From Candidatus Hodarchaeota archaeon (GTDB taxonomy: Archaea > Asgardarchaeota > Heimdallarchaeia > Hodarchaeales > Hodarchaeaceae), in NCBI GenBank assembly GCA_029856365.1, contig JAHQWW010000002.1:1-64000 (forward strand): a stretch of 64,000 nt of DNA, given 5' to 3'. The notes beneath the pieces were generated by a model. It worked only from the letters and a program-made list of their open reading frames with translations. It had not been told where the DNA came from and searched no databases. This document shows, piece by piece, positions 8,953-61,734 of this stretch (its first letter is position 1; every line of letters begins with the position of its first letter). The translations under genes and the position numbers were made by a program.

Positions 8953-9149
8953 TTCAGAATATACTCCTATTCTGTCTTATAAGGATCTAAAAGCATTTAT
9001 ACTTTCACTATACTCGATTTAAACTTGGTTTTTTTTGTCTTAACGAGTCTTTTGATTTGAACATTACCCTAGAAAATAAGAATTGAATAATATATTTGCT
9101 ATCTTATTCTTTGTACTATATCAAGTAACGAATAGTAGGTGCTATATGA

Positions 9150-13783: not shown

Positions 13784-16030
13784 CTAGATTCCTGAAAGAT
13801 CATCTTCAGACATTTCTAATACCATTTCCCATATTATTGCCAATTCAGGTAAGAATTCAGAAATGTTATTCTTGCAAGCATCAAGAAGTTGGGGAGTTAA
13901 ATCGTTAAAGATTTTCTTCATTTGTTCTGAAATTGTAGTATTTTCTTTTTGTTTCTCCTTAAAATCATTCAATCGCATTTTTATACTACGATGTTCCTGT
14001 TCTAACCCATAAACGTCTGAGAATCTCTCTCTTAAAAGCTTCAAGAAAATATTTTGGATTTTTAAGTTTATTTCTTCAAAGAATCTTTTTAAGATTTTTT
14101 CGTTGAAATAAAGGACTTTTTCAGCATGTAAACGGGCTCGTCTATCCTCCTCTAAGTTTTCGAGTCGTTTCTTTTCAGCTATTTTCATTGTTTCAATACG
14201 TGCTTGCTCTTTCTTTATCGCTAAGTCAATACGATCAGTTACTGATTCATCGGCCGGTATAATCCTAAATGACTCTTCTATTTTTCCTGATAGCCGTAGA
14301 TTACCAGGTTCACAGAAATCTTCGGCCCCGTGGTGAATAAATTGCTCTAGCTTCGTTGCTCGGGCATCTATCATTGTTTTTACCCTCAGATCAGTTAATA
14401 ATTGATTGATTTTACTGAAAACTTGTCGTTGTTTCAAAGACTTAGCCTGAAACTCCAATGACGCCTCATTTTGGCAAAGTAGACCCACAATTCGGACCTC
14501 ATCTGTGGAAAAAAATACTAAAGTATTCTTTCCTTCATGCTTTTGATGTTTATACAAAAATTCCACAGGATAGAAGCTAATTTCAATATCTGGATTAGTT
14601 TGAAGCAACATTAAGCGTAAAACATTCGAACAATGATCAGTGATGAGTTTTATATGATCTAATAACTGCTTTGTTTGATCCCTAGTAATCATAGATGATT
14701 TAATCCCTAAAGTATCCATTCTTTTTAAGGTAATCTCTTTTGGTGTATCTATTATCATTTCTACAATGTTAGCTTGACTTATATCTTGTTTAAGAACACC
14801 AATAGGGATTAACCCTTGTTCCCGAAGTTCATCTTTCATTTCCAGAAAATTATATTCTTCTTGTAAGTTGTGTATATACATCTCCATCCAAGCTGAGAGT
14901 AACATATCCATATGTTCGGTTGCAGGATTAACCTGATCCTTCAAACGGCTTGAAATCCCTCTGATATCGATACAACGCTGTTTAGAATATGAGATGATCG
15001 ATTGTAAATTCACATTTTGTTCTGAAAGTAACAGGTAATTCCAATTTCCTAGAGAGTTTGGAAACCCATTATTTGGAGAGCTTTCTTCGAAATTATGAAT
15101 ATAGAAAAATCTCTCTTCTGGTCTTTGGTCTAGTACCTTTATCTGAACATGAAACTTAGCAAAGAGGAATTGTTGAGGATTGTCAGTATCACTTAACGTT
15201 TGTACCATATGTAAAGAGTTTTTTAGTTCTTGCTTCAATACTTCGTTCGGAACTATTTTTTCATCATATGCAATAGAGGTAAATAACTCTCTCGAGTCAG
15301 TTTCATAAAAAACTGAAGTAGCAAATTCATGTGGCCGACGTCCAATATCACCAAAAGACTCCAATTCCTTTACATCATCTTCAAATTTTTGAATGAAGTA
15401 TTCCTCCACAAAAGGTTGAATTACAAAGAACCCTGCATCAAAATAGAATTGAGGATCCATCTCAGCAATAGGGAATTTGTTAATAATATCTTTGTAAAAT
15501 TCTGAGGCAAACTCTTTATTTAAAGCACCAGCTAACTCAGCCATTGCCCATCTCAGATCCAAATTGGGTAGTACTTGTTTTAAAAATGAAAATAACGGCA
15601 CTGCGTAAACATCCACTAGATTAGTTGCAATTATTTTTTGATCGACCAATAAACGAGCATGAGTAATCAGATCTTTTTCTATCTTGACCGCCCAATCATA
15701 AAGGAGAGAGTATAAATGAACCAGCGATTCAAAATCTAACGTTAAATGTTCTCTGGCAACAATAAGATTTTCGAGTACAACATCGACTCTCTCATCCTCA
15801 TCTCCTCTATCTCTTGCTTCTTTATCCCTTTTTAGCTTATCCATAACATAATTAGCCAGATAAAACGCTGAAACTGCTGTATCAACGTCTGTATTGTAAG
15901 TGTTTGCCAAGTCCTGTAACAATTCATCGTACATGACTTTATATGTTCCAAAAATCTCTAGAACATTTCTTCTTCTTGCAAGAATTTCCTTAAGCTCATC
16001 AATCAAAGACATACCGTATTCTACGGCCAT
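13784..16030 (-). CDS. Large hypothetical protein (748 aa), mostly helical, with C-terminal coiled coil
   Basis: Long ORF with GGTGA RBS upstream; no recognisable catalytic motif. Confidence 0.8.
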   Translation of the reverse strand: MAVEYGMSLIDELKEILARRRNVLEIFGTYKVMYDELLQDLANTYNTDVDTAVSAFYLANYVMDKLKRDKEARDRGDEDERVDVVLENLIVAREHLTLDFESLVHLYSLLYDWAVKIEKDLITHARLLVDQKIIATNLVDVYAVPLFSFLKQVLPNLDLRWAMAELAGALNKEFASEFYKDIINKFPIAEMDPQFYFDAGFFVIQPFVEEYFIQKFEDDVKELESFGDIGRRPHEFATSVFYETDSRELFTSIAYDEKIVPNEVLKQELKNSLHMVQTLSDTDNPQQFLFAKFHVQIKVLDQRPEERFFYIHNFEESSPNNGFPNSLGNWNYLLLSEQNVNLQSIISYSKQRCIDIRGISSRLKDQVNPATEHMDMLLSAWMEMYIHNLQEEYNFLEMKDELREQGLIPIGVLKQDISQANIVEMIIDTPKEITLKRMDTLGIKSSMITRDQTKQLLDHIKLITDHCSNVLRLMLLQTNPDIEISFYPVEFLYKHQKHEGKNTLVFFSTDEVRIVGLLCQNEASLEFQAKSLKQRQVFSKINQLLTDLRVKTMIDARATKLEQFIHHGAEDFCEPGNLRLSGKIEESFRIIPADESVTDRIDLAIKKEQARIETMKIAEKKRLENLEEDRRARLHAEKVLYFNEKILKRFFEEINLKIQNIFLKLLRERFSDVYGLEQEHRSIKMRLNDFKEKQKENTTISEQMKKIFNDLTPQLLDACKNNISEFLPELAIIWEMVLEMSEDDLSGI

Positions 16031-16213
16031 TAAATCACCAGATTTCTCTCTTATAATAGATTAGGATTTTTAAGAATGTGATAATTAATATGTATTTACC
16101 TACCAAAAAGAGAATTTATTTGGTTTAGATAATTCTTAGATATGAAAGTGGATCTTAAGAGATAAAAATCATTCAAATTTCCCCTAGATATTTATTTAGC
16201 AATAAATATCTAA

Positions 16214-16566
16214 ATTTACGAAGTTAAATGCCTCTCCATTGAAAACTTAGCTGGAGAGGTTTATATCACTGATTTCAGTATCCAAGAAATACATAACCAT
16301 CCTAATGGATTCCAAGAATTAGATGTCTTGGCTCCTGGTAGCGGATACGAGGCCTATATCCTAGAAATCCTGAATATCTTCATCTTCCTTGGTAATCGAC
16401 AGCACTTGAGATCCAACCAGGAAGTATGGCTATTGTTGATATGTTATATAACGAATTTGACAACTTCCCAGGATGGGGTTGGACGAATGTAGAATAGGAT
16501 TCGGATGCGACTGGATCGGGTCTAATACAAGCTGCTCTTGCGGTAACTGCCGCAGCTACAGTATAA
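16214..16566 (+). pseudogene. Possible degraded gene remnant
   Basis: Protein-like stretches in shifting frames (ENLAGEVYITDFSIQEIHNHPNGFQELDVLAPGSGYE; PGSMAIVDMLYNEFDNFPGWGWTNVE*), with no intact start or family. Confidence 0.3.
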
Positions 16567-16654
16567 TCTCATACATTTCCCTCCTTTTTATTTTTCACAG
16601 TTACCTAAACGCCTTCTACCTAAGTAAAGGTGTTAAAGGACTGTTTTATACCTT

Positions 16655-18766
16655 TCATTTTAGAAGCCTGAGAGAGTTCAATACTGTTAAAATTGTCACT
16701 CCCACATCACCAAATACTGCAGCCCACATAGTAGCAAGTCCCATTGCCCCCAAAAGTATGAATAATGTTTTAATTCCTAATGCCGCCACAATATTCTGTT
16801 TTGCTAATCTGCTGGTTCTTCTTGAAATATCAATTGCATCACTTAGTTTTAAAGGATTATCTTCCATGATAACTAAGTCTGCTGCTTCAATAGTCGCATC
16901 TGAACCAATTCCGCCCATTGCCACCCCAATATCTGCTCTTGCAATAACTGGTGCATCGTTAATACCATCTCCAACAAAAACCACGGCTCCTGCTTCGGAA
17001 TTCTTATGAATATAGCTTTCTAACACTTCTAATTTATTTAAAGGCATCAAATTGGCATATATTTCTGTTTGATCAATTCCTAACTCCCTTCCAACTCTTT
17101 CTGCAACATTTTTGGCGTCACCAGTTAATAAACCAATAGTTAAGATGTTTTGGGACTTTAATTTCTTAATTGCTGTAAACGAAGTGTCTTTAATCTGATC
17201 ATCAATGATTATATGGCCAATATACTCCCCATTTTTTATTACATAAACTGCAGTTTCATCTCGAATGCATTCTGAATGAGGACAATTCACTTTATGTGCT
17301 AATTTATCATTCCCTACAATGATGGAATCATTCGACGTAGTCTTCATAATAACTCCTAAAGCAGCTAATTCCTCATACTCCTCAATTTGGGTTAAATCGA
17401 TTTGTTTTCCATATGCTTCACGAATTGAAACGGCAATAGGATGTGTAGAATGCGCTTCAGCGAGAGCAGCATAGTTTAGGACATCATGAGGACTGTAATC
17501 TGGAGCTGGTACAATTGTAACTACTTGAAACATACCTACAGTTAATGTTCCTGTTTTATCCCATAGAACGGTTGTCACATTATTTAATGAATCAATAACA
17601 TTAGCCCCCTTAAGTAAAATCCCTTCCCGTGAGCTCTTGCCAATTCCAGAGAAATAAACCAAGGGTATAGAAACAACTAAAGCACATGGACAAGAAATGA
17701 CTAAAATAACAAATGCGCGGTAGACCCACACATTTAAAGCTTGGCCGAATAAAACAGGGGGAATAACTGCTATTACGAGAGCTACCACAAGAACTAGTGG
17801 GGTATAATAGCGAGCAAATCGTGTGATAAGAAGTTCAGTTTTTGATTTATTTTTGGCTGCATTTTCAACAGCATTTAAGATTCTTGAAACAGTGCTATCA
17901 AAACAGGGGGATGTGACTTGAATGTGAATACTTTTACTCGCTATTGAACCAGATAAAACATTATCACCTTCGTTCACAGTCACAGGACGAGATTCTCCAG
18001 TTAGAGCTGACATATCTAGATTTGTCTGGCCTTTAACGATTTTTCCATCTAATGGAACTCGTTCTCCTGGTTTTACTAGAATTGTATCACCTGGAGTAAT
18101 TTCAGTAATGGGGACTGTAATAATTTTGTCTGTTTTAACAAGATGAGCTTGATCTGGGCGGATATCCAACAAAGAGCTAATTGATTGACGTGAATGATTG
18201 ATAGCTTTTGTCTGAAGAAATTCCCCAATCGTATAAAAAACCATGACAGCTACAGCCTCAGGAATCTCCTGTATGAAAATTGCTCCAATCGTTGCTATAG
18301 ACATTAAAATATATTCATTTGTAAAATTGTAATTCTTTAACTGAAGAATAGCATTCCTGAGTACTTTCCATCCAGCGATAAAGTATGCAAAAAACAATGA
18401 TAAATTTCCTGTTAAAATAAGAATTTCTGCCATTGAGGGGTGTGTTAATACAATTCCCAAAATAAGAAATATTAATGAAATAAAGATCTGAACAATAGGA
18501 ACCCAATCTTCGGTTATTTGTCTTTGACCTAGGCCTCTAATCACGGGGATGGCAAGAACTCCTGGTTCGATTTTAGAAATGATTGCATTTATCTCATCTG
18601 CGTGGGAGTCACATCCTTTCTCTCCACAACTAAATGTTAGTACCCTTGTAACAAAATTTAACTGCACGTTAGAAAAATCCTGCCCTTTCAAAGTATCCTC
18701 AATCTTAAGTGCACAATTAGTACAGCTTAGCCCTTTGATAGAAAATTCATGGATATCCTGACCCAC
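16655..18766 (-). CDS. cadA: Cd/Zn/Pb-translocating P1B-type ATPase
   Basis: N-terminal CTNC metal-binding domain, TGES, CPC, DKTGT, HP, GDGINDAP, K in TM7 and DVG in TM8. Confidence 0.95.
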   Translation of the reverse strand: MGQDIHEFSIKGLSCTNCALKIEDTLKGQDFSNVQLNFVTRVLTFSCGEKGCDSHADEINAIISKIEPGVLAIPVIRGLGQRQITEDWVPIVQIFISLIFLILGIVLTHPSMAEILILTGNLSLFFAYFIAGWKVLRNAILQLKNYNFTNEYILMSIATIGAIFIQEIPEAVAVMVFYTIGEFLQTKAINHSRQSISSLLDIRPDQAHLVKTDKIITVPITEITPGDTILVKPGERVPLDGKIVKGQTNLDMSALTGESRPVTVNEGDNVLSGSIASKSIHIQVTSPCFDSTVSRILNAVENAAKNKSKTELLITRFARYYTPLVLVVALVIAVIPPVLFGQALNVWVYRAFVILVISCPCALVVSIPLVYFSGIGKSSREGILLKGANVIDSLNNVTTVLWDKTGTLTVGMFQVVTIVPAPDYSPHDVLNYAALAEAHSTHPIAVSIREAYGKQIDLTQIEEYEELAALGVIMKTTSNDSIIVGNDKLAHKVNCPHSECIRDETAVYVIKNGEYIGHIIIDDQIKDTSFTAIKKLKSQNILTIGLLTGDAKNVAERVGRELGIDQTEIYANLMPLNKLEVLESYIHKNSEAGAVVFVGDGINDAPVIARADIGVAMGGIGSDATIEAADLVIMEDNPLKLSDAIDISRRTSRLAKQNIVAALGIKTLFILLGAMGLATMWAAVFGDVGVTILTVLNSLRLLK

Positions 18767-18779
18767 TTCGGTAATCCTC

Positions 18780-19142
18780 CTAAGCTGTAGGATGTTCTTT
18801 AAGGTGTTCTAATGCATTAGTTATAATCGGTTCTAAGTGCTCAATTTCGAGTGAATAATAGTTTTCTTTCCCATTACGGCGATATTTGACGAAATTCCCC
18901 TCCCTGAGTTCCTTCAATTGATGAGAGACAGCTGAAGGAGATAAACCTAAGATATCACTAAGATCACATACGCAAAGTTCTGTCTCAAATAGAGCTAGGA
19001 GAATTTTAATCCTTGTTTCTCCAGAAATAATTTTGAAAAATTTCGTTAATTGGTTTGGATTTGATTCATCGATCCTTTTACGGGCAATTTTTATCTGTTG
19101 TGGATGGATTACGATCGTTTTACAAGGTTCTGCCATTTTCAA
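18780..19142 (-). CDS. cadC: ArsR/SmtB-family metal-sensing repressor (CadC-like)
   Basis: N-terminal Cys, ELCVCDL, SAVSHQL; directly upstream of cadA. Confidence 0.9.
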   Translation of the reverse strand: MKMAEPCKTIVIHPQQIKIARKRIDESNPNQLTKFFKIISGETRIKILLALFETELCVCDLSDILGLSPSAVSHQLKELREGNFVKYRRNGKENYYSLEIEHLEPIITNALEHLKEHPTA

Positions 19143-19150
19143 CCGAACTC

Positions 19151-19170
19151 TAAATGAAATGATTCATTTA
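19151..19170. promoter_or_regulatory. Inverted repeat, putative CadC operator 1
   Basis: TAAATGAA-atga-TTCATTTA, a perfect 8-4-8 palindrome just upstream of cadC. Confidence 0.7.
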
Positions 19171-19194
19171 AGAATTTGTTAACAATAGTTTATA

Positions 19195-19222
19195 AAACAT
19201 TTGAATAGATCCTCAAATGTTT
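19195..19222. promoter_or_regulatory. Inverted repeat, putative CadC operator 2, abutting TATA box
   Basis: AAACATTTGA-atagatcc-TCAAATGTTT, a perfect 10-8-10 repeat. The minus strand has TTTTATAAA at about 19189-19197. Confidence 0.7.
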
Positions 19223-19300
19223 CAATACTTCAATCTAATTTTGTTGGTTGGTCAAGATCCAATTTCAATAAAAATAGGAACATTATAGTTTAGTATATCT

Positions 19301-19906
19301 TTAAATGTTGTGTAGACCATTTTCTTTCAACATGTAAAGGATTCCAGTTTTAACTCCAGCAGTTATCTCTTCTTGCCAAGTTTTTAATAGTGAAAGAATA
19401 ATTCCATGATGTTCCATTCTTTTCAATCCAATCTCATGTTCGATTTCATTACGAGAAAAAGTCATATCTGTTAAAATAACGACTTTATATCCATTAGCTT
19501 GAAGATCAATCGCAGTTTGAGCGATACACACGTCAGTTTCAAACCCACAGAGTACAGCAACCAAGCGTTGGGTATTTTTCATTTGTATAATTCCCTTTTG
19601 GATATCCTTTTGGCCCCAACAGCTATAAATGAATTTATCATAGATTTGAACGTTTGGAGGCAATGTACTCTGAATTGATACAGGGATGGAGTCATTCTTT
19701 TGGATATCCTCCGCAGTGATGATGAGAGGGATTTTTAACACATGAGAAAGCCTGATTATGTGGTTATACTTCTTTAAGAAGATTAATCGCTCTTCATTAG
19801 TGAGACCTAGCATAAATTTCGATTGGACATCAATAATAATGATAAAACAATCACTAGCATTTATCAAATTTGATGAACGAGATACAGGTTCAATATTATC
19901 TTCCAT
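19301..19906 (-). CDS. Isochorismatase-family cysteine hydrolase
   Basis: IIDVQ, DK..YSCW, GFETDVCIAQTA. Confidence 0.9.
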   Translation of the reverse strand: MEDNIEPVSRSSNLINASDCFIIIIDVQSKFMLGLTNEERLIFLKKYNHIIRLSHVLKIPLIITAEDIQKNDSIPVSIQSTLPPNVQIYDKFIYSCWGQKDIQKGIIQMKNTQRLVAVLCGFETDVCIAQTAIDLQANGYKVVILTDMTFSRNEIEHEIGLKRMEHHGIILSLLKTWQEEITAGVKTGILYMLKENGLHNI

Positions 19907-20017
19907 TGTGATTCATCTTTTAGATCTAAGTAATATCATTTTAAAAACATTGAATCACTAAACCCAAGTGGAAAAGGAAAAACCATTGATAAACCTTAAA
20001 AGATGGAGTAAATAAAT

Positions 20018-20149
20018 GTGATTCTCATCCAAACCTATCAAGAGCTCTATTATGCCTTGAAAGTGCTTCAAATGCTAAAAGAAAGCGATCAACCGCTGTA
20101 TGAAAAGCTTCATAAACAAATTAAAGGTCAAATCGAAAAACTAGTCTGA
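20018..20149 (+). CDS. Small 43-aa helical protein (below ORF-track cutoff)
   Basis: GGAG RBS then GTG: MILIQTYQELYYALKVLQMLKESDQPLYEKLHKQIKGQIEKLV*; fills the gap between genes. Confidence 0.55.
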   Translation: MILIQTYQELYYALKVLQMLKESDQPLYEKLHKQIKGQIEKLV

Positions 20150-20201
20150 AAAATCGAATATTCCTTGAAACCTATAAGCTGAAGCTTTTTAGTTTTGATG
20201 T

Positions 20202-20696
20202 CTAACTGATATCATAGATGAATGGGGGTTTGATTCCCAACATACGAAGATAAACGCATAATTGACCCCGATGGTGGATCGTCTCTTCCAGAATTGTTGT
20301 TAATGATTCAAAACCGCCTATCTGGACACCTCCCCAACAAGTGTAAGTTATTTTTTTGTCCATATCCGCTTCTATCAGTTTTGAGAAATTTTCTCTTATA
20401 TAGGTTTTGACTTTTTCCCCGTATTCGATGATTTCGGATGTTGATTCGATATTTTTTGAATCAAATGGAATAATAGAGTAATCATTATCAGAGAATTCTC
20501 CTTTTAATGTACCAGCCATATATGCCAATGAAACCATATAAACATGAGTCCCAAGTTCTGCCGCACTCATCGCGTCATCAACGGGTTTCCAGTTAAGTTT
20601 ATCATCAGGAATAAGCATAATAGCTTTATCAAGGGTTTTCATGGCATGATTCAAAGTATAATCAAACTGTTGTTTAACAGATTCCAATTTTGACAT
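20202..20696 (-). CDS. DinB/YfiT-family protein
   Basis: KLNWKP...MSAAEL..H, IHHRGQLCVYLRMLGIKPP. Confidence 0.92.
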   Translation of the reverse strand: MSKLESVKQQFDYTLNHAMKTLDKAIMLIPDDKLNWKPVDDAMSAAELGTHVYMVSLAYMAGTLKGEFSDNDYSIIPFDSKNIESTSEIIEYGEKVKTYIRENFSKLIEADMDKKITYTCWGGVQIGGFESLTTILEETIHHRGQLCVYLRMLGIKPPFIYDIS

Positions 20697-51308: not shown

Positions 51309-52007
51309 TCATAAAAAAGCAGGAATAATCATACTTAATCCAATTAATACACCTTCCAAGAAAATTATCACCCAAGCTCCCACAACGCATATACCTCCTG
51401 TAGATGAAACCCCTAGAGGTTGAGATCTGATGGATTGAGCGTCTTTACCGACTTTTCTTCTTTCATTTTCATTAGAATTTTGCAAAAAATAACAAAGAAT
51501 TTGTATGGCGATTTTACACATCTGGTATTGATTCTTATCCTTCTTCTCATCCAAGCTAAAGGGTACAGCAGGAGTATGGGACGCTATTTTAAGAAAATCT
51601 GAATAAAGATCAAAAATATGTCGTTCTCCTTTATCTTTCTTTGCTTTGGCTATCTTCTGGAGAGATGGGTTGAGAAGAATCTCTTCCATATTCAAAGAAC
51701 TTTTTTTATATCTTTCTTGTCTACTTCTGGTGAGGATTCTTACAGCCATTTGCCAAAATGGACGAGAAACTACAAAGTAAAACTGGTTAGGTTCTAAGAT
51801 GTTTTGAGGTTCGACTCTTGAAACCTTCATGTTTTCACGTGTTAAAATGACAAATTCCGTTTTTGTTGATTTTATTGGGAAATAGGTTGCAAAAAATTCC
51901 TTTGCTTTTATTTTATGAGGTACCATAATCTCATTAACACAGGTTTCAAGGTTAAAACCAATCAACTCCATATGTTTGATATTTAATATTTGTAAGATAT
52001 AAATCAT
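51309..52007 (-). CDS. Hypothetical tail-anchored membrane protein
   Basis: Soluble body with a single TM at the extreme C-terminus. Confidence 0.75.
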   Translation of the reverse strand: MIYILQILNIKHMELIGFNLETCVNEIMVPHKIKAKEFFATYFPIKSTKTEFVILTRENMKVSRVEPQNILEPNQFYFVVSRPFWQMAVRILTRSRQERYKKSSLNMEEILLNPSLQKIAKAKKDKGERHIFDLYSDFLKIASHTPAVPFSLDEKKDKNQYQMCKIAIQILCYFLQNSNENERRKVGKDAQSIRSQPLGVSSTGGICVVGAWVIIFLEGVLIGLSMIIPAFL

Positions 52008-52013
52008 CTGGTT

Positions 52014-52829
52014 CTACGTACTTCTAATCTTCTTCTTCCAGAATTTATACCATTTTATTATTGTATCATCATGAATGAAGACCTCAAATTCACCCCGAGG
52101 TTTAATTTCTTTGCCTTTTAGGATGATTTCTTTCTCGTTCTTATTTTTTTCTAAAAAGTCTATTATCATCTTTTTTACTTCAAGGACATATTCTAAGATT
52201 AAATTTACTTCTTCTTTCTTCATAATCTCTCCGTGTCCTATTATAATGTAATTTATATCAAAAGAGACATATTCTTTTAAAGCAAAAATCCACTTATCAG
52301 GATCACTGTGACGTCCTCCCCATAGAAAATCAGATCGTATATTATCACCTGTTGCTAATAGCTTATGCTTAGGAGAATAAACATAACTTGAATCAGGTGT
52401 ATGACCTCCTGTTTGCTTGATGATTATTTCGGAATCAGATTCTTTGATTACGTATTTTTCTTCAAAAACAACATTAGGAAAAACAAGGGGGAAATTTCTT
52501 TCTGGTTTACGCTTAGCTGCTTTTAAGAATTTCACTAATTGATTAGAAGCGATAATTTGACAATCAGAAAATAGGGGTAAGCTATGAGTATGATCACCAT
52601 GAAAATGGGTTAAAGCCACATATTCAATTTTATTCTTAAATAACGATTCAGCTTCGCTTCGAATCTTGGTTGCTTCGGTGATATTCCTTCCACAATCAAT
52701 CATAAGGCTTTTTGAACCTAGATTCAACACAACAATGTTTGCATGCCCTGGAAAATACAGTATATCCTGCGAGAGCTGAATTGGTTGTTGAGTCTTTTTG
52801 TTTTTCAAATTTTTCACCACATGAAACAA
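52014..52829 (-). CDS. Metallo-beta-lactamase-fold hydrolase
   Basis: IDCG, THFHGDH, GGHT, TGD, GHG; start uncertain. Confidence 0.9.
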   Translation of the reverse strand: MFHVVKNLKNKKTQQPIQLSQDILYFPGHANIVVLNLGSKSLMIDCGRNITEATKIRSEAESLFKNKIEYVALTHFHGDHTHSLPLFSDCQIIASNQLVKFLKAAKRKPERNFPLVFPNVVFEEKYVIKESDSEIIIKQTGGHTPDSSYVYSPKHKLLATGDNIRSDFLWGGRHSDPDKWIFALKEYVSFDINYIIIGHGEIMKKEEVNLILEYVLEVKKMIIDFLEKNKNEKEIILKGKEIKPRGEFEVFIHDDTIIKWYKFWKKKIRST

Positions 52830-53123
52830 AAAGAAAGAAATGACAATATTTTAACACGGAAGGATAGATGATCTTTTGAGTTATTTGTTAGTGGTAATAT
52901 GAGTATTGACAAAAAAATCATCAAGAAAGAATTATAAACAGAGAAGAGATGAATAAGAAGGAAATTAACAAACTGATTAAACTACTTGAGCAAAATTCAC
53001 CACAATTGGAAAAACTTGCCACTTGCAACAAAATGACTATATAATTACCGCTCTAAATTTGAAAGGAAAGGATCCAGTCAACAAGAAAAGAATATAACTC
53101 TAATTGAAAAAGAAGGTAGGTTT

Positions 53124-53969
53124 ATGTATCATAATCAGATATTAAAAGAATTAATTGGCGTTATTGGCACAGGAAAAATGGGAAGTGCGCTTATTAGGGG
53201 ATTACTGAAAAAAAACCTAGTAAATTCTAATCAAATCTATGCATATGATATTATATATGAAGATCTTATGGAACTGGTGAATGAAACTGGTATAAATGCT
53301 ACATTGAATAATTTACAAATAGTTGAACGATGCAGCATCATTTTTATCTGTGTTAAACCTCAAGTATTCGAAACCACTCTTCAAAAACTCCAAACCCATT
53401 TTACAAACGATCATTTAGTGATATCGATTGTTGCAGGAGTTCCTCTAACAACAATTGAGCGATTAACTGGGAAGGCACGATGTGTTCGTATAATGCCAAA
53501 TATGCCATTCCAAGTAGGAGAAGGTGCAGCTGGTTACAGTTTAGGAACCAGAAATGACAATCGAGATTCAGAAATTGTAGAACTCGTATTTGGTTCATTA
53601 GGTAAGGTCTTTCAATTTCCTGAACATCTATTAGATGCAGTTACAGGACTCTCAGGCACGGGTCCTGCTTATGTATTCGTTTTTATTGAAGCTTTGGCAG
53701 ATGGGGGAGTTTTAGCAGGATTATCTAGGCGTGAAGCCCTTATTTTGAGTGCACAAACCGTAATGGGTGCAGCTAAACTCCTTCTGGAACAAAATGTGCA
53801 TCCAGGAGTATTGAAGGATGCTATTATGTCCCCAGGTGGCACCACGGCTTCAGCATTACAGTTAATGGAAGCGCGAGGTTTTCGTTCTATTCTAATAGAT
53901 GCTGTGGAAGCTGCAACAAAAAAATCACAATTTCTGGGTCAAAATAATCTATCGTTATCTGATCGTTGA
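53124..53969 (+). CDS. proC: Pyrroline-5-carboxylate reductase
   Basis: GTGKMG, VKPQ, RIMPN, TGLSGTGPAY, SPGGTT. Confidence 0.96.
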   Translation: MYHNQILKELIGVIGTGKMGSALIRGLLKKNLVNSNQIYAYDIIYEDLMELVNETGINATLNNLQIVERCSIIFICVKPQVFETTLQKLQTHFTNDHLVISIVAGVPLTTIERLTGKARCVRIMPNMPFQVGEGAAGYSLGTRNDNRDSEIVELVFGSLGKVFQFPEHLLDAVTGLSGTGPAYVFVFIEALADGGVLAGLSRREALILSAQTVMGAAKLLLEQNVHPGVLKDAIMSPGGTTASALQLMEARGFRSILIDAVEAATKKSQFLGQNNLSLSDR

Positions 53970-54106
53970 TCGATGAATGCAACTGGATCTTTATTTGGTT
54001 CGTATTTGATTTATTTTAAGCTATCACTCACCATTGAAGGAAAAAAATTCGTGGTTACAGGTGAACGAGATGTACCTATGTATCTTTTATCTCATCCGAA
54101 TCAGTG

Positions 54107-55237
54107 TCAAATACTTCTTACTTCAATTCGTTCCAATTTTTCAATCCAAAAGGAGCCATGATAGTTGTGTGCTACAATACGGAGGCCAATCTCAGTTGAT
54201 GTCACAATTATTGATCTATCACGATAAATTTCTTCTCCACTGAAATCTACTTGGTAACCATCAGAAGCGCTTAATTGAACTATAAAATTTTCAGTTTTAG
54301 GTTGAGCACGTTCTACAATATGAAATAAGGGAACTCCAGTATAATTCTTTGGAGGAACATATGTAACATCACCAATTAATTCCGCTTCAACGGTTATTTG
54401 TAAATCATAGAAATCTGAAGGGAAGTACGTGTATGGATTAAATACATCTCCAGATACTTCCGCGGAATAGCGATTTTGAACAGCAAGGAGATAAAATACC
54501 CCGATCTCACTCACTATAATAACTATAAGTATTATTATTCTTAGAATTTGGATTTGTTTAAGCTGGCTAGGATCGCTCGGAGTCTTCCTCCAATTCAAAA
54601 CGACAGATCTATCGAAAAGTTGCCATGTGGAGATAGCAAAGAGCCCTCCAAGAAAAAAACCTGAAATAAAGCTTAAAAGTCCAATAAATCCAATAAATAG
54701 TATTGGAATTTGGGAATTGAAGAATAAAATCTGTTGAGTAATGACATTTGATAGACTAGAAAAGCCTGCGGCCACAGATAAAATAGATTTATTTTGTGTT
54801 GATAAAAACACAATGATAAAAATCTCGATAATAAGTCCTTGGGTTCCAGATAAGACCACTACTAATATTCCATGAGCACTACCACTAAAGAATTCAACAA
54901 AACCTTTTAAAATGCCCGCCATTAATGCAGTACCGACTTTTCGTTTTGCTAGGAGATAAATGAAGACTATCCAAAAAACATGTAATCCAGCCAGGATCTG
55001 CCCCCCACCAAATGGAATGCCAATTATATGGTTAATTAAATTCCCTAAGTACCCGATAAAGGTACTAAAGATCCCTCCCAACGCACTGAATAAAGCAATG
55101 ATTACCAAATCACTCGTTTCATAATAACGAATGGTTTTCTTTTTCTTCCTTACGCGATTTCCATTAATCCAAGGGATTTTTGTAGTATGAGAGGTTTCAG
55201 ACTGTTGAATTTCAGAATCTTTAACTTCATTTTCCAT
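54107..55237 (-). CDS. ECF-type transporter S-component (YkoE-like) fused to a C-terminal sulfite-oxidase-fold domain
   Basis: DLVIIALFSALGG...GLHVFW...KVGTA...GFVEF..G..HG...QGLIIE with about six TMs; then an extra TM and YTGVPL...ASDGY...LRIVA..GSFWIEKLERIEV. Confidence 0.82.
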   Translation of the reverse strand: MENEVKDSEIQQSETSHTTKIPWINGNRVRKKKKTIRYYETSDLVIIALFSALGGIFSTFIGYLGNLINHIIGIPFGGGQILAGLHVFWIVFIYLLAKRKVGTALMAGILKGFVEFFSGSAHGILVVVLSGTQGLIIEIFIIVFLSTQNKSILSVAAGFSSLSNVITQQILFFNSQIPILFIGFIGLLSFISGFFLGGLFAISTWQLFDRSVVLNWRKTPSDPSQLKQIQILRIIILIVIIVSEIGVFYLLAVQNRYSAEVSGDVFNPYTYFPSDFYDLQITVEAELIGDVTYVPPKNYTGVPLFHIVERAQPKTENFIVQLSASDGYQVDFSGEEIYRDRSIIVTSTEIGLRIVAHNYHGSFWIEKLERIEVRSI

Positions 55238-55239
55238 TT

Positions 55240-56823
55240 TTATCTTTCCAAGATTCGTAAGAATTTAACATATTTCATCCATCGATACCCCGCTGAAGGC
55301 CAAATATGAAACCCTTCGCCCAATGGAGAAGTAATTTGACAGTCATCATTACTGTACGCGCCATCAGGGGCCAGAAAAACTATTCGATAGCCATCAATCC
55401 ATTCAGGCACAAAGGTCTCATTGTAAGCATATGCAAGTATCACATCACCTTGAATTATTTTCCAAGAATTATTAGGAAAGATTACTGGGTAACTAAAATT
55501 TTGGATTAATCCATCCCATGTTTCGATCTCTAAGACATGATTAGGGGTCATTCCACCCACAGTTTCCAGGAGATCACTTATTAAAACACCTCTATATTCG
55601 CCATAGGATCGCCAATTGTCATATTGATTTTGAAAACTACTTTGACCATAGATTATATCAAATTCTAATTGTAGATCAGATACAGAAATAATGTTGACAG
55701 ATTGATCTTTAATAACCTCAATATCTAAAGGGGAGGCCCTCCTTTCAAATTCTATTGGTTTAACTGACCAATTCAAATGATTATTGTTAAAGGTTATCTC
55801 AAGGTAATGATGGAACCCTCCCAATTCTTTAGATTCATGTAAAGCTGCCCCACCTCCACCAGATGTTATAAAATGTATATTTTCACGAATAGTATAATTG
55901 TAGATATGAATATGACCAGAAAGTACAATTCTGACATTATTTTGGGCAAAAATCTTTAATAGTAAATCACTTTGAGAATCATTTAAGAAATCGTGGTCTT
56001 TTGAAGCACGAGGGTCAAACAAGGGAATATGAGTAAAGATTACTTTCGGTTGTGTATAGTAAGTACTAAAAGTTTTAAAGAGAAAATCCATAGTAGACGA
56101 TGTTAAAGACCCTGTTGATGAATCAAGAGAAATAAAGAGGAAATTTCCAAATTTAAAGCAATAATTTGACTCACCAAAAAATGTTTGATATTGCATACAA
56201 GAATTTTCTGATTTTATATCATGATTTCCTGGCGTAAAGAATACAGGTGCTGTTGAATTTCTCGTTATCCGTTGAACCTCATTAAATTGGGGAACTGTGC
56301 CAAATGAAGTTATGTCACCCAAATGAACGAGAAAAGAGTATGAATAACAGTTTAATTGACGAGTTAAGCTTTTAAATTGATAGTAGAAACCTTGAGTGTC
56401 ACCTATAGCAGCTATCTTAAAAATTTCGCCCTGAATTTCATTCTTTAATACAATTTCTCTTTTTTGCTGAGGTATGGAAATAATTTTCAATGAAAGAAAT
56501 GTAGAATTATGAATAGAGTATTTTTCTTGATCTAACAGCCCATAAATTGAAAGATTTTCTGTTTGAATATTAAAAATTGAGATGTTAAGCGTTTGATTTC
56601 TTTCTATTGTTATAGAACTGAATGTCAAATTAAATCCTTGGTTCCAAATAAAAGCCTCTCCTGAGACATGATTATATTCTAATAATGTACCACCATTGAT
56701 TTTGAATGGAAAATCAGTGGAATATTCTGAATCTTCCCAGAGAAGAAATAAAAAGAAAAATGAAAGACTAAGAGAAACCCCAAGTATTATCGTAGAAATT
56801 AATCCTATTACCCTTCTATTCAC
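55240..56823 (-). CDS. Membrane-anchored calcineurin-like metallophosphoesterase fused to a sulfite-oxidase-fold domain
   Basis: N-terminal TM; GDTQG, LGD, GNHD, THIP, GHIH; C-terminal YRGV...ILAYAYN...RIVF...RWMKYV; many N-x-S/T sequons. Confidence 0.85.
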   Translation of the reverse strand: MNRRVIGLISTIILGVSLSLSFFFLFLLWEDSEYSTDFPFKINGGTLLEYNHVSGEAFIWNQGFNLTFSSITIERNQTLNISIFNIQTENLSIYGLLDQEKYSIHNSTFLSLKIISIPQQKREIVLKNEIQGEIFKIAAIGDTQGFYYQFKSLTRQLNCYSYSFLVHLGDITSFGTVPQFNEVQRITRNSTAPVFFTPGNHDIKSENSCMQYQTFFGESNYCFKFGNFLFISLDSSTGSLTSSTMDFLFKTFSTYYTQPKVIFTHIPLFDPRASKDHDFLNDSQSDLLLKIFAQNNVRIVLSGHIHIYNYTIRENIHFITSGGGGAALHESKELGGFHHYLEITFNNNHLNWSVKPIEFERRASPLDIEVIKDQSVNIISVSDLQLEFDIIYGQSSFQNQYDNWRSYGEYRGVLISDLLETVGGMTPNHVLEIETWDGLIQNFSYPVIFPNNSWKIIQGDVILAYAYNETFVPEWIDGYRIVFLAPDGAYSNDDCQITSPLGEGFHIWPSAGYRWMKYVKFLRILER

Positions 56824-56866
56824 TTGCTATACTCCTAAATTCTTAATTTTTCTATAATTACACCAC

Positions 56867-58807
56867 CTAATTAGGAATGATAAGTATCTCTGCTATCGCG
56901 TAGACCATCCTACTTGATATAAATCCTAATCCAATCAAATGAAGGGGAGCGTGTTTCTCATCTAATAAAATACCGTTTCGTTGATAAGCAAGGATGATAG
57001 ATGTATTATATGCAATCATTTGACTGTCAAAATCTTTTGAATAACCATCTTGAGCTTTAACCTGAACTATATATCCTGTTGAAACTAAAGTGTTATTAAA
57101 ATCGTAATTAAACCCGGAGTAGTGCGTTCCACTGTCACCTCCATCAAAAATGGCAATTATAACATATAATGGAAGCCCAACAAAAGTTACATTTTTAGTA
57201 TCTTCAATAATTGTCACTGAAATTCTATGATAACGACAACCAGCTATGGACAGATATTCTTCAGCAGTTAATACGGTTGAATAGCTTGGATCTATCTGAT
57301 TTGTTAAACTAACGGTCCAATTAAGGATTGTTTCAGAGATATCAGTGATGATAATTGATTCTATTTTACTGATCCATTGATCCATTGAAAGATCTGGTGA
57401 TACTAATCTTACTGGAAATTCATCCTCGGGTAAGGGGAGATTATTTTTAACATGGGCTAAAATTAATGAATCATTTCGTGTTGTAACTGATGACGGAAGA
57501 GTCAAATTTTTTCCATCTGTTGAAAAAATTGTAACATTGTACCCTTGAGCTGCCAAAGAGTCATTGAATGTATAATGGACACTACCATCATTTCCATCAA
57601 TCATTGAGAGAACAATCCACAAAGGCATCCCTTCATAGGTATTTATTTGACCACCTTCAGAATATTGATAGCTTACATTATGAACACGATCTCCACAATA
57701 AACAGCGGAATCGAAATCATCAAGACCGATGGTTGTTTGAGAAACACCAGATAACATTATTGACCAATCTGGAATACCAGAACCAATTTTTATCGCTTCA
57801 ACATATTTTACCCAGAAATGTCCCTCTGAAATAGGCCCTCCTGAACCTAGATAACCCATTCTAAAAGGTCCACCATAATCTTTTTTCAGTGGTTCTCCAT
57901 TTTCTTCATAAATTAATGTTAATGTGAGATTTTTAGGCCCCCCATGGCCAATTTCAACTCCATTTTCATTGAAAAGGGGAACATTTCCAAAGATTTGTTT
58001 TTTAGTAAAAGTAAAGTTATAAAAATCAATAGGTACAATCTCTATGGAAAAATCAGATGTGAGATTAATAAGTAGATCTAAAGTAGCAGTCATGTTCACT
58101 CCTTTGTAATTGTACGGTCCAATGATAGCCCCTGTTGTCTTTAAATGAGATCCCGAACCCTCAACAGAAGGAAGAACTTTCAATTGAGAACGAGATAATG
58201 AAAATTTTGTATCGGGAATTTCAAATGTGATTTTTTCACTTTCTCTGATGAATTCCAGTTTATTAACCCATCTTGACCAGCGGCTACTAGAAGCTGCATT
58301 CTTATATTCTAATGATGCTGTTTTCTGTTGATCTTCCGTAGAATATTCCTCATCTGAGGGAAGAAAGACTATTCGTAATCCATCTTCCCATTTAGGAACT
58401 TTAGTACCATTGAATTCATATGCTAGAATCATTGTTCCTTGAATTTCTTCCCATTCTGACAAGGGGTAAATGTTTTCATAAGTAAAGATCTGGCTATAAT
58501 TATCTTCAGAAGTGACAATCAAAATATCACCTTCTTGAATTCCACCGACTTCTTCTGCAAAAACAGAGATAGGAACACCTCTATAAGCCCCATTATCACG
58601 CCAATTCCCAAATGAATTCTGACATTTACTTGTTCCATCAATACCTGTTAACTCGGTTATGTCTGTGAGAGTGAATTCCTCAGATTCCCCTGAGACTCCC
58701 AATACTACTAGTTCAATTTCTTGGGTTTCTTCTAGTTCGGTACAACCAGAAAGCAGTCCAATAAATAGAAGTAGAAAATAAACTATTAGAATAGACTTAA
58801 ACCTCAA
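56867..58807 (-). CDS. Lipoprotein with four tandem sulfite-oxidase-fold (molybdopterin-binding-like) domains
   Basis: Lipobox LLSGC; four repeats of Y/FxG(V/M/L)...DG/DNY...ILAY..NG..L...P.RL...W(V/I)..(I/V)..I; many sequons. Confidence 0.82.
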   Translation of the reverse strand: MRFKSILIVYFLLLFIGLLSGCTELEETQEIELVVLGVSGESEEFTLTDITELTGIDGTSKCQNSFGNWRDNGAYRGVPISVFAEEVGGIQEGDILIVTSEDNYSQIFTYENIYPLSEWEEIQGTMILAYEFNGTKVPKWEDGLRIVFLPSDEEYSTEDQQKTASLEYKNAASSSRWSRWVNKLEFIRESEKITFEIPDTKFSLSRSQLKVLPSVEGSGSHLKTTGAIIGPYNYKGVNMTATLDLLINLTSDFSIEIVPIDFYNFTFTKKQIFGNVPLFNENGVEIGHGGPKNLTLTLIYEENGEPLKKDYGGPFRMGYLGSGGPISEGHFWVKYVEAIKIGSGIPDWSIMLSGVSQTTIGLDDFDSAVYCGDRVHNVSYQYSEGGQINTYEGMPLWIVLSMIDGNDGSVHYTFNDSLAAQGYNVTIFSTDGKNLTLPSSVTTRNDSLILAHVKNNLPLPEDEFPVRLVSPDLSMDQWISKIESIIITDISETILNWTVSLTNQIDPSYSTVLTAEEYLSIAGCRYHRISVTIIEDTKNVTFVGLPLYVIIAIFDGGDSGTHYSGFNYDFNNTLVSTGYIVQVKAQDGYSKDFDSQMIAYNTSIILAYQRNGILLDEKHAPLHLIGLGFISSRMVYAIAEILIIPN

Positions 58808-59056
58808 ACTAGGTTCACCTATTATTTTCCTATAAAAAATAATTACCTGAAAGTAGAAATTTTAATAAGATCAGGTCGAATGGATGCTATATAACAGAAA
58901 TTTAATAACTTATTTGGTAGTTGTCAGTAATTTTCAAACTTTCAAATTTCCTTTAAATATTTAGTATGCACATTAAGTGAAAAACTCCCATTAGAAGAAT
59001 CCATTGTTATAGCTGATTGGCTTAAACTTCATTGATTGATTTGAGGATGAAGTATA

Positions 59057-59560
59057 TTGATTGATCCAAGTGAATTTATAACGTTCTTAGAGAAGAAATT
59101 TCAATATATCTGTGGTGTGCCATGCTCTTATTTTAAAGAATTTCTGGCCCATCTAGCTTCTCATGGAACAGAAACACAATTAAAACATGTTTACGCTACT
59201 AGGGAAGACGAAGCAATAGGGATAGCCTCGGGTGTAGCCTTTTCAGGAAAAAAAGCTCTTGTTTATATGCAAAATAGTGGGATTGGAAATATAGGAGACG
59301 CCTTGACCTCACTAGCCCAGTTATACAAACTACCTATGCTAATATTAATCAGCTACAGAGGTTTAGAACCTGATAACGATTTCCCTGAACATTCAATTAT
59401 GGGGGAAGTTAATGAACCTGTTTTGAAGGCATTTAAAGTTCCTTATTGGAATTTATCAGAAGACAGATGGACAATAGAGATGAAAGCAGCTATCCAAAAA
59501 ATGACAGAAACCTCATCTCCAGTGGTTTTACTTGTAAAAAAGGGAGTGTTGTGTCAATGA
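59057..59560 (+). CDS. comD: Sulfopyruvate (or phosphonopyruvate) decarboxylase alpha subunit, ComD-like
   Basis: GVPCS, TREDEAIGIASG, MQNSGIGN, SYRG, PEH. Confidence 0.75.
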   Translation: MIDPSEFITFLEKKFQYICGVPCSYFKEFLAHLASHGTETQLKHVYATREDEAIGIASGVAFSGKKALVYMQNSGIGNIGDALTSLAQLYKLPMLILISYRGLEPDNDFPEHSIMGEVNEPVLKAFKVPYWNLSEDRWTIEMKAAIQKMTETSSPVVLLVKKGVLCQ

Positions 59561-60126
59561 TGAAAGGATATGAGATAATTTCCGCTTTGAGTAACCATCT
59601 TAGTGAGAATGACATAATCGTGAGTTCAAATGGGAACATCAGTAGAGAAGCTTATAATCTACTTCCTAAACCCCAAGTGTATCTCAGGGGTTCGATGGGC
59701 TTACCAATTCCTGTTGGATTGGGATTGGCATTAGCTAATCCAAACAAAAGGATCACAGTAATAACTGGAGATGGAAACTTTTTAATGGGCTTAGGTTCAG
59801 CTACGACTGCTGCGTTTTACAAACCTAAAAACTTGAAAATACTTATTCTTGACAATTTAAAATATTATACAACAGGAGGTCAGAAAACAGTTTCTTCAGT
59901 TATTGACTATGTTAAATTTCTCGAATCACTATGTATCGAATATAAATGTTCCAAAAGAGCTTCTCAAGATGAAATAGAACAAGATTTGTCTGAATTTATC
60001 AACTCAGAAGTTTTTAGTGTTCTTCACTTAACCATCAAAGAAGGTAAAAAGGATTTAATGAATATACCTGATCAACCAGAAGAAATTACTGAAAAGATGA
60101 TTCTTAGATTAACTAAATTAGCATAA
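59557..60126 (+). CDS. comE: Sulfopyruvate (or phosphonopyruvate) decarboxylase beta subunit, ComE-like
   Basis: ATGA overlap with comD; GNISRE, GSMG, GDGNFLM...DN ThDP motif, TGGQ. Confidence 0.75.
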   Translation: MMKGYEIISALSNHLSENDIIVSSNGNISREAYNLLPKPQVYLRGSMGLPIPVGLGLALANPNKRITVITGDGNFLMGLGSATTAAFYKPKNLKILILDNLKYYTTGGQKTVSSVIDYVKFLESLCIEYKCSKRASQDEIEQDLSEFINSEVFSVLHLTIKEGKKDLMNIPDQPEEITEKMILRLTKLA

Positions 60127-60210
60127 TGATTCCAGATGAGAGAAATATCTTTAAACAGGAAAATTGCAGCTATAAAAGGAAAGATGAAACAGTTAAGAGG
60201 AATGTAAGAA

Positions 60211-60483
60211 ATGACACATGATGTAAAATTAAAAGTAATAAAACAAGAAGGGCATTGCACTGCAGGACATGAAATAGGGGATGAAATATTCATTTCTTTC
60301 GAGAAAAACGAGATAAAAGGAAAAATATGTTTACATGCTTTATATTCAGTGTTACCAAAGGTGTATGCAATGGCTTATGGTGCTGAATTTCCATGGTTAG
60401 AAGATCCTGATGTGAGTACACACGCGTGTCCTGACGCCACGAATCCCTTAGTATATGAAGTGAGAAGAATCAGAAAAGATTAG
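60211..60483 (+). CDS. TIGR04076-family small Cys protein
   Basis: GHCTAGHEIGD, ICLHA, FPW, ACPDATNP. Confidence 0.8.
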   Translation: MTHDVKLKVIKQEGHCTAGHEIGDEIFISFEKNEIKGKICLHALYSVLPKVYAMAYGAEFPWLEDPDVSTHACPDATNPLVYEVRRIRKD

Positions 60484-60498
60484 TAGTGGTGTTACTCG

Positions 60499-61734
60499 TT
60501 ATAGAACAGGTCCAGCTTTGGATTCAATAATAATTCCACGCTTTTTCAATTCATGTTCAAAAATTTCATAGGGGATATCATTCACAGGTGAAAGGATCCC
60601 TTTTTTGGTTATTTTTCCATTTCCAATTAATTGTGCACCAATACTTGCTGTATAACCTACAGTACGACTCATTGCAGTGAAACCTGTCGTTAAATCGCGT
60701 TTATCGATTAATTGATAGATAACACGAGTTTTTTCTTCATTTCTTTTTCCAACAACCTCAAGGAATAATATGGCTAGATCTCTTTCATCCGCTTTCAATT
60801 GGATATGGGGCCCAATTATCTTAGCGAGAAAACTTCTACGATCTATTTTTTTACCGTCAATGTCAATTGCTTCATTATCCAAAAGATGAAGATCCACAAG
60901 TTTTTTCCAAAATGCGCAATGACCAGGCCACCGCATAGTATATCTCCCCATTTGTTTAATTGATTTATATTGTTCAGAATGTTCTTCAATGCCGATTGAT
61001 TGGAGGTATTGGAGAGCATCACCATTTGGAAATGCCTCCAAGTTTCCAATCCCCTCAATAATAATCTCATGAATATTTTCTGGGTTAAATATCTCTCTTT
61101 CTTTTATTTCAACAACTTCTCCATTATTAATTATTTTGGCTTTACGAAAGTAAGTATACAAGACCCCTTCAAGATTCCAAGTGACTTTATAATTTAATGG
61201 ATTATTAGCAGCTTCCAGTATTGGAATCCCTGCCCCATAACTGTTTATAACTTCGATATCTCTCAATCCTTTAATTGCTTGCCCCAATAGTACAAGATCT
61301 ATTCCTGGATCTAACCCAAATTCAGGCAAAACTGTAATTCCTTTATGCTTTGCTTCTCCTGCTAACGCCCTTATTTGGGGAGTAACAGAAAGAGTATTGA
61401 TTAAATTTAGCCCAAATTTGACAGCAGATATTGCGATTCTCTCTACAAAGGAAATAGGGAGTAAATCAATAACAATATCAGGCTTTAAAGACATTAGTTG
61501 GTTGATATGATTTTGATTATGTGCATCTAAGAATTCACACTGTACTTTGGAATATTGGTTATGTTCTACTAATTGTTTTAGTACATTGATATCCTTATCT
61601 GCAGCAATAATCTCACTTACAGTATCACTATTTACAAGGTCGTGGAGTGCAACTTTGCCTTGTAAACCAACACCAAGAAGGAGAACTTTCATAGGGGAGA
61701 TTTCTGAGAATTCTTTTAAAAATGATTTTTCCAA
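60499..61734 (-). CDS. Saccharopine/lysine dehydrogenase-like oxidoreductase
   Basis: GVGLQG, GLDPGID, NPLNYK, TMRWPGH, TAMSRTVG. Confidence 0.88.
   Translation of the reverse strand: MEKSFLKEFSEISPMKVLLLGVGLQGKVALHDLVNSDTVSEIIAADKDINVLKQLVEHNQYSKVQCEFLDAHNQNHINQLMSLKPDIVIDLLPISFVERIAISAVKFGLNLINTLSVTPQIRALAGEAKHKGITVLPEFGLDPGIDLVLLGQAIKGLRDIEVINSYGAGIPILEAANNPLNYKVTWNLEGVLYTYFRKAKIINNGEVVEIKEREIFNPENIHEIIIEGIGNLEAFPNGDALQYLQSIGIEEHSEQYKSIKQMGRYTMRWPGHCAFWKKLVDLHLLDNEAIDIDGKKIDRRSFLAKIIGPHIQLKADERDLAILFLEVVGKRNEEKTRVIYQLIDKRDLTTGFTAMSRTVGYTASIGAQLIGNGKITKKGILSPVNDIPYEIFEHELKKRGIIIESKAGPVL

Follow-up and report, generated by a model that had tools for sequence, protein, structure and literature searches.

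Molybdenum and tungsten pyranopterin cofactors (Moco and Tuco) are usually described as cofactors that cells must make themselves. Here we analyse three genes that may serve their uptake—a lipoprotein, a phosphoesterase, and an energy-coupling factor (ECF) S-component, encoded at positions 54,107 to 58,807 of a 64,000-nucleotide stretch of DNA (the window) from a Candidatus Hodarchaeota archaeon (assembly GCA_029856365.1, contig JAHQWW010000002.1). Described proteins of three kinds come closest. The first is the group I ECF transporter YkoEDC(F), which carries thiamine or hydroxymethylpyrimidine (HMP) in Bacillus subtilis; to our knowledge, ECF transporters are otherwise described as having no solute-binding proteins. 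The second comprises the Moco domains of sulfite oxidase (SUOX) enzymes such as SorA, SoxC, YedY/MsrP, and chicken sulfite oxidase. The third is PruR of Agrobacterium, Vibrio, and Klebsiella (structures 7kou/7kos, 7kom, 7kp2, and 7rkb), experimentally shown to be a periplasmic pterin binder with a truncated SUOX fold and a replaced molybdenum-ligand cysteine; its pterin ring is sandwiched by Y104 and W160, and N102 gives a hydrogen bond (PMC11194511).

The locus combines known kinds of protein, an ECF transporter and a PruR-like domain; the cofactor-uptake function is one that we have not found described for prokaryotes. In the literature searched on Moco together with ECF transporters, or with its salvage, uptake, or auxotrophy, no prokaryotic importer is described, in agreement with an earlier reading of the DNA made from its letters alone (the sequence-only reading), which knew of no characterised prokaryotic uptake system for the molybdenum or tungsten cofactor. 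A 2013 survey of riboswitch regulons reports coenzyme transporters for B12, thiamin, riboflavin, queuosine, and folate, and none for Moco (PMC3766115). Caenorhabditis elegans takes up dietary Moco, that is, finished cofactor from other organisms, as proposed here; however, it is a eukaryote, and the available part of that study identifies no transporter (PMC7849362).

From in silico evidence we conclude, with a probability of about 0.68 (roughly two in three), that the three genes are the surface half of a dedicated ECF importer that salvages a molybdopterin-type cofactor. Four independent lines of evidence tie the system to a molybdenum or tungsten pterin cofactor: fold, phyletic pattern, operon content, and regulation. 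The three open reading frames (ORFs) are the following:

56867..58807, minus strand: lipoprotein ORF, 646 amino acids (aa), TTG start, AGGTGA 8 nt upstream of the start
55240..56823, minus strand: phosphoesterase ORF, 527 aa
54107..55237, minus strand: ECF S-component ORF, 376 aa

The sequence-only reading had described three co-oriented genes, 43 and 2 bp apart, that encode six copies of one outward-facing domain, and this description is confirmed in each part. The ORFs lie on the minus strand with those gaps, and the repeated domain is recovered by Pfam, by profile matches, by the AlphaFold2 (AF2) fold, and by 43% identity (E 3e-31) between the C-terminal 160 aa of the phosphoesterase and lipoprotein domain 1. 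A six-domain alignment yields the common motif Y.GV(P)L ... D(G)Y ... ILAY..NG ... LR(I/L)V ... W(V/I).K...I. The topology follows from a lipobox in the lipoprotein (LLSGC, residues 18–22), a transmembrane (TM) anchor in the phosphoesterase, and a seventh helix in the S-component. Dense N-glycosylation sequons, the remaining part of the topological claim, are present in the lipoprotein (15 observed vs 5.5 expected) and the phosphoesterase (12 vs 5.2); the S-component domain is not enriched (1 vs 0.7).

The lipoprotein consists of four tandem SUOX/PruR-fold domains (about aa 30–190, 191–345, 346–492, and 493–646), matched in four stretches by PF00174 (Oxidored_molyb; Pfam, E 1.9e-16). Its AF2 model (pLDDT 85) retrieves SUOX enzymes and PruR in Foldseek at target-normalised TM-scores (TMt) of 0.67–0.75. 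The export signal of this surface lipoprotein is of the lipobox/Sec type, and a twin arginine is absent.

The S-component belongs to PF09819, the YkoE type (E 3.9e-14; 53.3 bits vs a curated cut-off of 25.2). Six helices (aa 41–210) are followed by the seventh TM helix (aa 223–253), whose N-terminus is rich in lysine and arginine, and by an extracytoplasmic domain (aa 255–376); cysteine is wholly absent from the protein. The AF2 model has a pLDDT of 86.9 overall and above 93 for the beta-rich C-terminal 120 aa, and its membrane part aligns with YkoE (5edl) at a TMt of 0.78, a root-mean-square deviation of 2.2, and 22% identity. The C-terminal 120 aa have no Pfam match; by Foldseek they match SorA (E 1e-6), SoxC, YedY, and chicken sulfite oxidase, as well as PruR (7rkb/7kos) at a TMt of ~0.6. 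A sequence search of the PDB with the single domain gave no matches, and SUOX enzymes are reached by family profiles only—the profile of the S-component domain family finds SoxC/SorA in the PDB (E 2e-4) and also matches all four lipoprotein domains. Y299, G301, D326, and W364 are invariant, and G327 and Y328 nearly so. The system thus has PF09819 and the six-helix S fold in common with YkoEDC, and in relatives the S gene adjoins a dedicated fused double ATPase and a CbiQ-type T component; in contrast to YkoEDC, it has a seventh TM helix with a tethered extracytoplasmic domain, an ecto-phosphoesterase, and multi-domain surface proteins.

The source genome, labelled G000, encodes another PF09819 S-component (228 aa) on contig C54 (L010:10502-11188, minus strand), an unfused paralogue that is common among relatives; the same contig also encodes part of an AOR, a homologue of the RuBisCO large subunit (445 aa), and a protein of 142 aa in which two histone folds are matched.

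The phosphoesterase comprises an N-terminal TM anchor, a sequon-rich spacer, a Metallophos domain (aa 135–331; PF00149, Pfam, E 3.7e-17), and a C-terminal SUOX/PruR-like domain (aa ~368–527) with a weak PF00174 match (E 0.12). The five metal-ligand motifs of metallophosphoesterases (GDxxG, GD, GNH[D/E], H, and GHxH) are kept across 29 homologues, in which D142, D170, N200, H201, H304, and H306 never vary and H265 hardly does; purple acid phosphatases are among the distant relatives. We infer a putative membrane-anchored, purple-acid-phosphatase-like ecto-enzyme.

A close structural counterpart of the repeated domain is PruR. TMt values against 7kom, 7kp2, 7rkb, 7kos, and 7kou range from 0.59 to 0.75 for the S-component and lipoprotein models, and the two families have in common a minimal, exported, non-catalytic SUOX fold of ~120–160 aa with the cysteine replaced, although sequence similarity is not detectable. 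Judged from sequence positions, the conserved D-G-Y and C-terminal W have a spacing similar to that of Y104 and W160 in PruR. The contexts differ: PruR signals to the cyclic di-GMP enzyme DcpA (pruR-dcpA operon, GGDEF/EAL), whereas the neighbours here are phosphoesterase and ECF genes, the domains are often repeated in tandem, to a maximum of 10 copies, and the genomic links indicate Moco/Tuco rather than monapterin. With the SUOX Moco domains (SorA, SoxC, YedY/MsrP, chicken sulfite oxidase) the family has in common the GVPL, DG, LRLV, and W.K motifs and Foldseek E-values of 1e-6 to 1e-8; unlike those enzymes, it lacks the N-terminal FxRNH segment and the dimerisation domain and uses Sec/lipobox export instead of twin-arginine (Tat) export. 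The sequence-only reading had assigned a Moco-binding sulfite oxidase/MsrP fold. Foldseek and profiles uphold the fold; the Moco site does not hold for most of the six domains, which are Cys-less and PruR-like, the conserved cysteine being wanting in four. The six are not predicted to be enzymes. About 1040 representative clusters make up the family, whose proteins have as many as ten copies in tandem; protein P0248 (1556 aa) has 10 matched stretches, and cultured Anoxynatronum species encode giant surface proteins of ~1500 aa made of the same domain (L078/L081:72-4586).

Two lipoprotein domains do keep a cysteine—Cys371 in domain 3 and Cys524 in domain 4, conserved in 12/14 and 11/12 orthologues, ~20 residues before GxPL—while domain 1 has Y/F at this position in 11/14 orthologues. 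These cysteines are candidate molybdenum ligands; the SUOX profile alignments end short of the region. They would suit SUOX-like proteins that act as extracytoplasmic redox enzymes or electron-transfer modules, the ECF genes being merely genomically linked, for example by supplying the cofactor or importing a product; so would the presence in G000 of other Sec-type, membrane-anchored SUOX proteins with an RCVEG or LTC cysteine. However, the Sec/lipobox export of the lipoprotein, with no twin arginine, leaves no cytoplasmic cofactor loading; its PF00174 match begins at profile position 13, and the FxRNH segment, dimerisation domain, and heme domain are absent; the cluster contains no electron-donor gene; and the carriers appear unable to make the cofactor at all (see below). 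We regard a redox role as very unlikely.

The two Cys-bearing SUOX-family proteins of G000 (C2:2206-3042, minus strand; C23:18782-19825, plus strand; motifs LTC / RCVEG) are canonical members whose N-terminal signals are Sec-like and have no twin arginine. A TM anchor ends one of them at the C-terminus, and a multi-helix membrane domain that by eye resembles MsrPQ is fused to the other.

The missing half of the transporter is found in relatives. In 80 species-representative loci the order S-AA'-T is kept wherever the contig allows, with the exception of L018, the closest relative, in which lipoprotein, phosphoesterase, and S-component genes are arranged as in the window and AA'T is missing. 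The phosphoesterase gene adjoins the S gene in 52 of these loci, and additional SUOX-like proteins, free or fused, occur in 71. In Desulfuribacillus, a Firmicute metagenome-assembled genome (MAG), and Thor- and Hermod-archaea, phosphoesterase and/or SUOX-like proteins precede the S gene, which is followed by the fused double ATPase and the CbiQ-type T component. G000 itself has its AA'T pair on contig C131, outside the window, at a locus collinear with the closed genome G058, where a fused S gene lies directly upstream of AA'-T. The association with ecfAA'T that the sequence-only reading had proposed to look for is conserved across many archaea and bacteria.

Three conserved ORFs of 171, 274, and 245 aa flank AA'T on C131 (L008:4607-6099 and 8610-9347) and likewise in L002. 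None has a Pfam match; by eye they look cytoplasmic, the 274-aa ORF being nucleotidyltransferase-like (GS...DxD) and the 245-aa ORF having a ParB/Srx-like DGHHR motif. The operon of Desulfuribacillus alkaliarsenatis contains four SUOX-like genes; it is flanked on one side by an ABC system of the FecCD/Peripla_BP_2 kind and on the opposite side by genes for FdhE-like, 4Fe-4S, and cytochrome b proteins (L001:388-3404 and 13808-20456).

Carriers of the system need the cofactor and lack the means to make it. The source assembly (4.24 Mb, 204 contigs, 83.6% complete) encodes 13 AOR-family and 2 SUOX-family proteins, and nothing in it matches MoaC, MoaE, the C-terminal domain of MoaA, or MoeA; enzymes of the bis-MGD type (PF00384; MGD, molybdopterin guanine dinucleotide) were not found, and a MobB gene is retained. 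Five carriers that are 91–99% complete, one of them closed, have 5–10 AORs, and MoaC, MoaE, and MoeA were not found in them. We also tried PF00994 (MogA/MoaB) as a marker and rejected it: it matched ORFs of ~270 aa, taken as CinA-type, in 4/5 carriers tested; a control was likewise positive in Bacteroides and Thermotoga, which leaves the family uninformative.

This complementarity extends across 399 Asgard genomes, in which the fusion was scored by fused-domain matches above 100 bits. The fused S-component occurs in 81 genomes and MoaC in 176, and the overlap is 0 where ~36 would be expected (Fisher p 2e-24, a statistic that ignores relatedness). The real argument is the repeated switching within genera, rather than the p-value: both states are mixed within six genera. 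In family f12, MoaC is confined to two genomes, which are also the only ones to lack the fusion, and family f31 has 49 genomes with the fusion, 30 with MoaC, and about seven with neither; MoeA follows MoaC at class level. The sequence-only reading had asked whether carriers lack Moco biosynthesis genes, and these results are in its favour.

ThiC served as a control, and it bears on a different substrate. It is absent in all of families f1 and f12 irrespective of the fusion, and a pooled tally of 2/89 for f31–33, both in f33, leaves none in f31; equally absent with or without the fusion, ThiC cannot explain the fusion's distribution. The absence of ThiC from all carriers would otherwise suit a thiamine/HMP importer like YkoEDC, whose phosphoesterase would dephosphorylate thiamine pyrophosphate (TPP) or thiamine monophosphate extracellularly, with the extra domains as generic capture modules. 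PF09819 membership, the thiamine-binding YkoE as the nearest solved structure, and the label of thiamin/HMP permease that JGI gives to some homologues point the same way. Yet sister genomes that lack the fusion are equally without ThiC, the S-component is only 22% identical to YkoE, the same genomes hold an unfused PF09819 paralogue, and the bacterial homologues bear Moco rather than TPP riboswitches. A thiamine importer is therefore, in our judgement, extremely unlikely.

Operon content and regulation supply two links that the sequence-only reading had not foreseen, and both support the salvage interpretation that it proposed. The first is a split form of the operon in family f7, where MoaC and MoeA are absent and AOR is present. 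Four f7 genomes have the gene order EcfT, MobB with a putative Fe-S domain, a TM-anchored PF00174 domain, and an unfused PF09819 S-component, with no ATPase gene seen in the split operon:

L011:6128-8936 (G077:C73), also L012, L013, and L014: split operon of f7, with MobB/Fe-S (261 aa), PF00174 (175 aa), and S (206 aa)

Family f4 has the same combination of absent MoaC and MoeA with AOR present, and there a TM-anchored protein with two weak SUOX-like domains lies beside two ABC_membrane+ABC_tran half-transporters, which may be a third transporter architecture with the same capture domain:

L016:2961-7835 (G027:C14) and L015:7742-9441 (G032:C6): SUOX-like gene and half-ABC genes of f4

The second link is the Moco/Tuco riboswitch RF01055, which is found close to the homologous operon, in coding-strand orientation, in 11/16 Bacillota loci (55–79 bits). 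It stands at the operon start in nine and downstream of the ECF genes in two Anoxynatronum genomes (12260-12378 in L078/L081); the five loci without it have less than 2.4 kb of upstream sequence, and the Desulfuribacillus locus has no riboswitch at the gathering threshold. An Rfam scan of positions 52000-61000 of the window gave no match at E <= 1, nor was a regulator of the operon found; we know of no archaeal member of this riboswitch class. Two of the bacterial riboswitches are without stem P3, a variant that Regulski et al. tied to tungsten-cofactor genes (PMC2408646).

Regulation of this kind would also fit the uptake of tungstate or molybdate, with the SUOX-like domains as oxyanion binders and cofactor repression of the operon, on the pattern of modABC and tupABC. 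Among the genes that Moco riboswitches control, those for molybdate or tungstate transporters are frequent (PMC2408646). Desulfuribacillus keeps MoaC beside the operon, and WtpA was present only in genus g8 and in none of the carriers, a search result of little weight for metal uptake. However, an oxyanion alone gives no cofactor for 5–13 AORs, because the carriers are without MoaC, MoaE, and MoeA; the fold is that of a pterin/Moco binder and not of a known oxyanion binder, and the phosphoesterase would have no role. We also know of no ECF S-component that carries oxyanions, and consider this explanation quite unlikely.

Returning to cofactor salvage, the analysis shows the folds, the topology, the synteny, the links to riboswitch and MobB, and the phyletic complementarity with biosynthesis; which species is transported and with which metal, how the domains pass it on, and what the phosphoesterase acts on we infer as follows. 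The importer would be a group I, YkoEDC-like ECF transporter that takes from the environment either Tuco/Moco (W- or Mo-pyranopterin) or a very late derivative of it. First, the PruR-like, mostly Cys-free domains (four in the lipoprotein, one in the phosphoesterase, and one in the S-component) would capture the pterin moiety outside the membrane. Second, the phosphoesterase would probably trim MGD or molybdopterin cytosine dinucleotide (MCD) to nucleotide-free molybdopterin (MPT), the form used by AOR and SUOX; the presence in G000 of users of the nucleotide-free cofactor only, with no PF00384, fits such trimming. Third, the S-component would carry the ligand across, powered by the fused EcfAA' ATPase and EcfT from contig C131. 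Finally, the cofactor would serve the 13 AOR and 2 SUOX-family proteins inside the cell, perhaps helped by the retained MobB. Since the carriers are without MPT synthase and MoeA, cyclic pyranopterin monophosphate (cPMP) or bare metal would be insufficient, and the transported species is probably metal-loaded MPT or close to it.

Several observations weigh against salvage of the finished cofactor. Neither MoaC nor the fusion is found in 142 of the 399 Asgard genomes; the f7 part of these is explained by the split operon, the f4 part tentatively and only by another ABC type, and Loki-type genomes are left out. Desulfuribacillus has the operon and MoaC together, so the system is not restricted to auxotrophs and strict exclusivity is rejected for bacteria. 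Most of the genomes compared, G000 among them at its 83.6% completeness, are MAGs. A phosphatase that stripped the MPT phosphate would destroy the cofactor. Moco is labile; by the account of a review, most organisms are unable to take it up (PMC9026282). Lastly, the truncated PruR pocket is without the deep cleft that holds full Moco, according to its authors (PMC11194511); with a pocket this shallow, and with most domains lacking the cysteine and FxRNH, a smaller pterin is conceivable.

Such a ligand could be another pterin or an early Moco intermediate—cPMP, neopterin or monapterin, or folate or methanopterin precursors—from which the phosphoesterase would remove phosphates, for example those of dihydroneopterin triphosphate. 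PruR binds small non-Moco pterins with no deep Moco cleft, the cysteine ligand is missing in most domains, and the phosphoesterase suits phosphorylated pterins. The genomic evidence runs the other way: the riboswitch class is that of Moco/Tuco and not tetrahydrofolate, MobB lies inside the split operon, and gene presence tracks the loss of MoaC and MoeA; cPMP itself would be useless to the carriers because MoaE and MoeA are missing. Import of such a compound is unlikely, though we give it some weight.

The surroundings of the operon in the window are as follows:

58808..59056, no strand: AT-rich intergenic stretch of 249 bp between the operon and a divergent TPP-enzyme gene, presumed promoter region
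53124-53969, plus strand: proC, an unrelated flanking gene
59057-60126, plus strand: split TPP-dependent enzyme, an unrelated flanking gene

With flanking genes that are unrelated and on the other strand, the cluster is a self-contained three-gene unit. At 59057-60126, two overlapping ORFs divide between them the N-terminal and the C-terminal TPP-binding domain of a single kind of enzyme, a putative split TPP-dependent decarboxylase or possibly a frameshift (ORF overlap 59446-59560).

We lean towards the wider view that this is the first prokaryotic uptake route for a finished W/Mo pyranopterin cofactor, and that large Asgard clades (Hodarchaeales/Heimdall-, Thor-, and Hermod/Odin-like families), probably Thermoplasmata, Methanofastidiosia, and some Bacillota, are auxotrophs or scavengers that depend on their neighbours. 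The cultured bacteria Anoxynatronum, Desulfuribacillus, and Dehalobacter carry homologues, which makes the hypothesis directly testable. If true, it would account for the 5–13 AOR enzymes that many Asgard archaea and other anaerobes operate while having no biosynthetic pathway, and an ECF transporter would be seen to use tethered extracytoplasmic capture domains—in effect, to have substrate-binding proteins. The pterin cofactor would then join the vitamins that are traded within communities, a dependency that would bear on models of syntrophy and eukaryogenesis.

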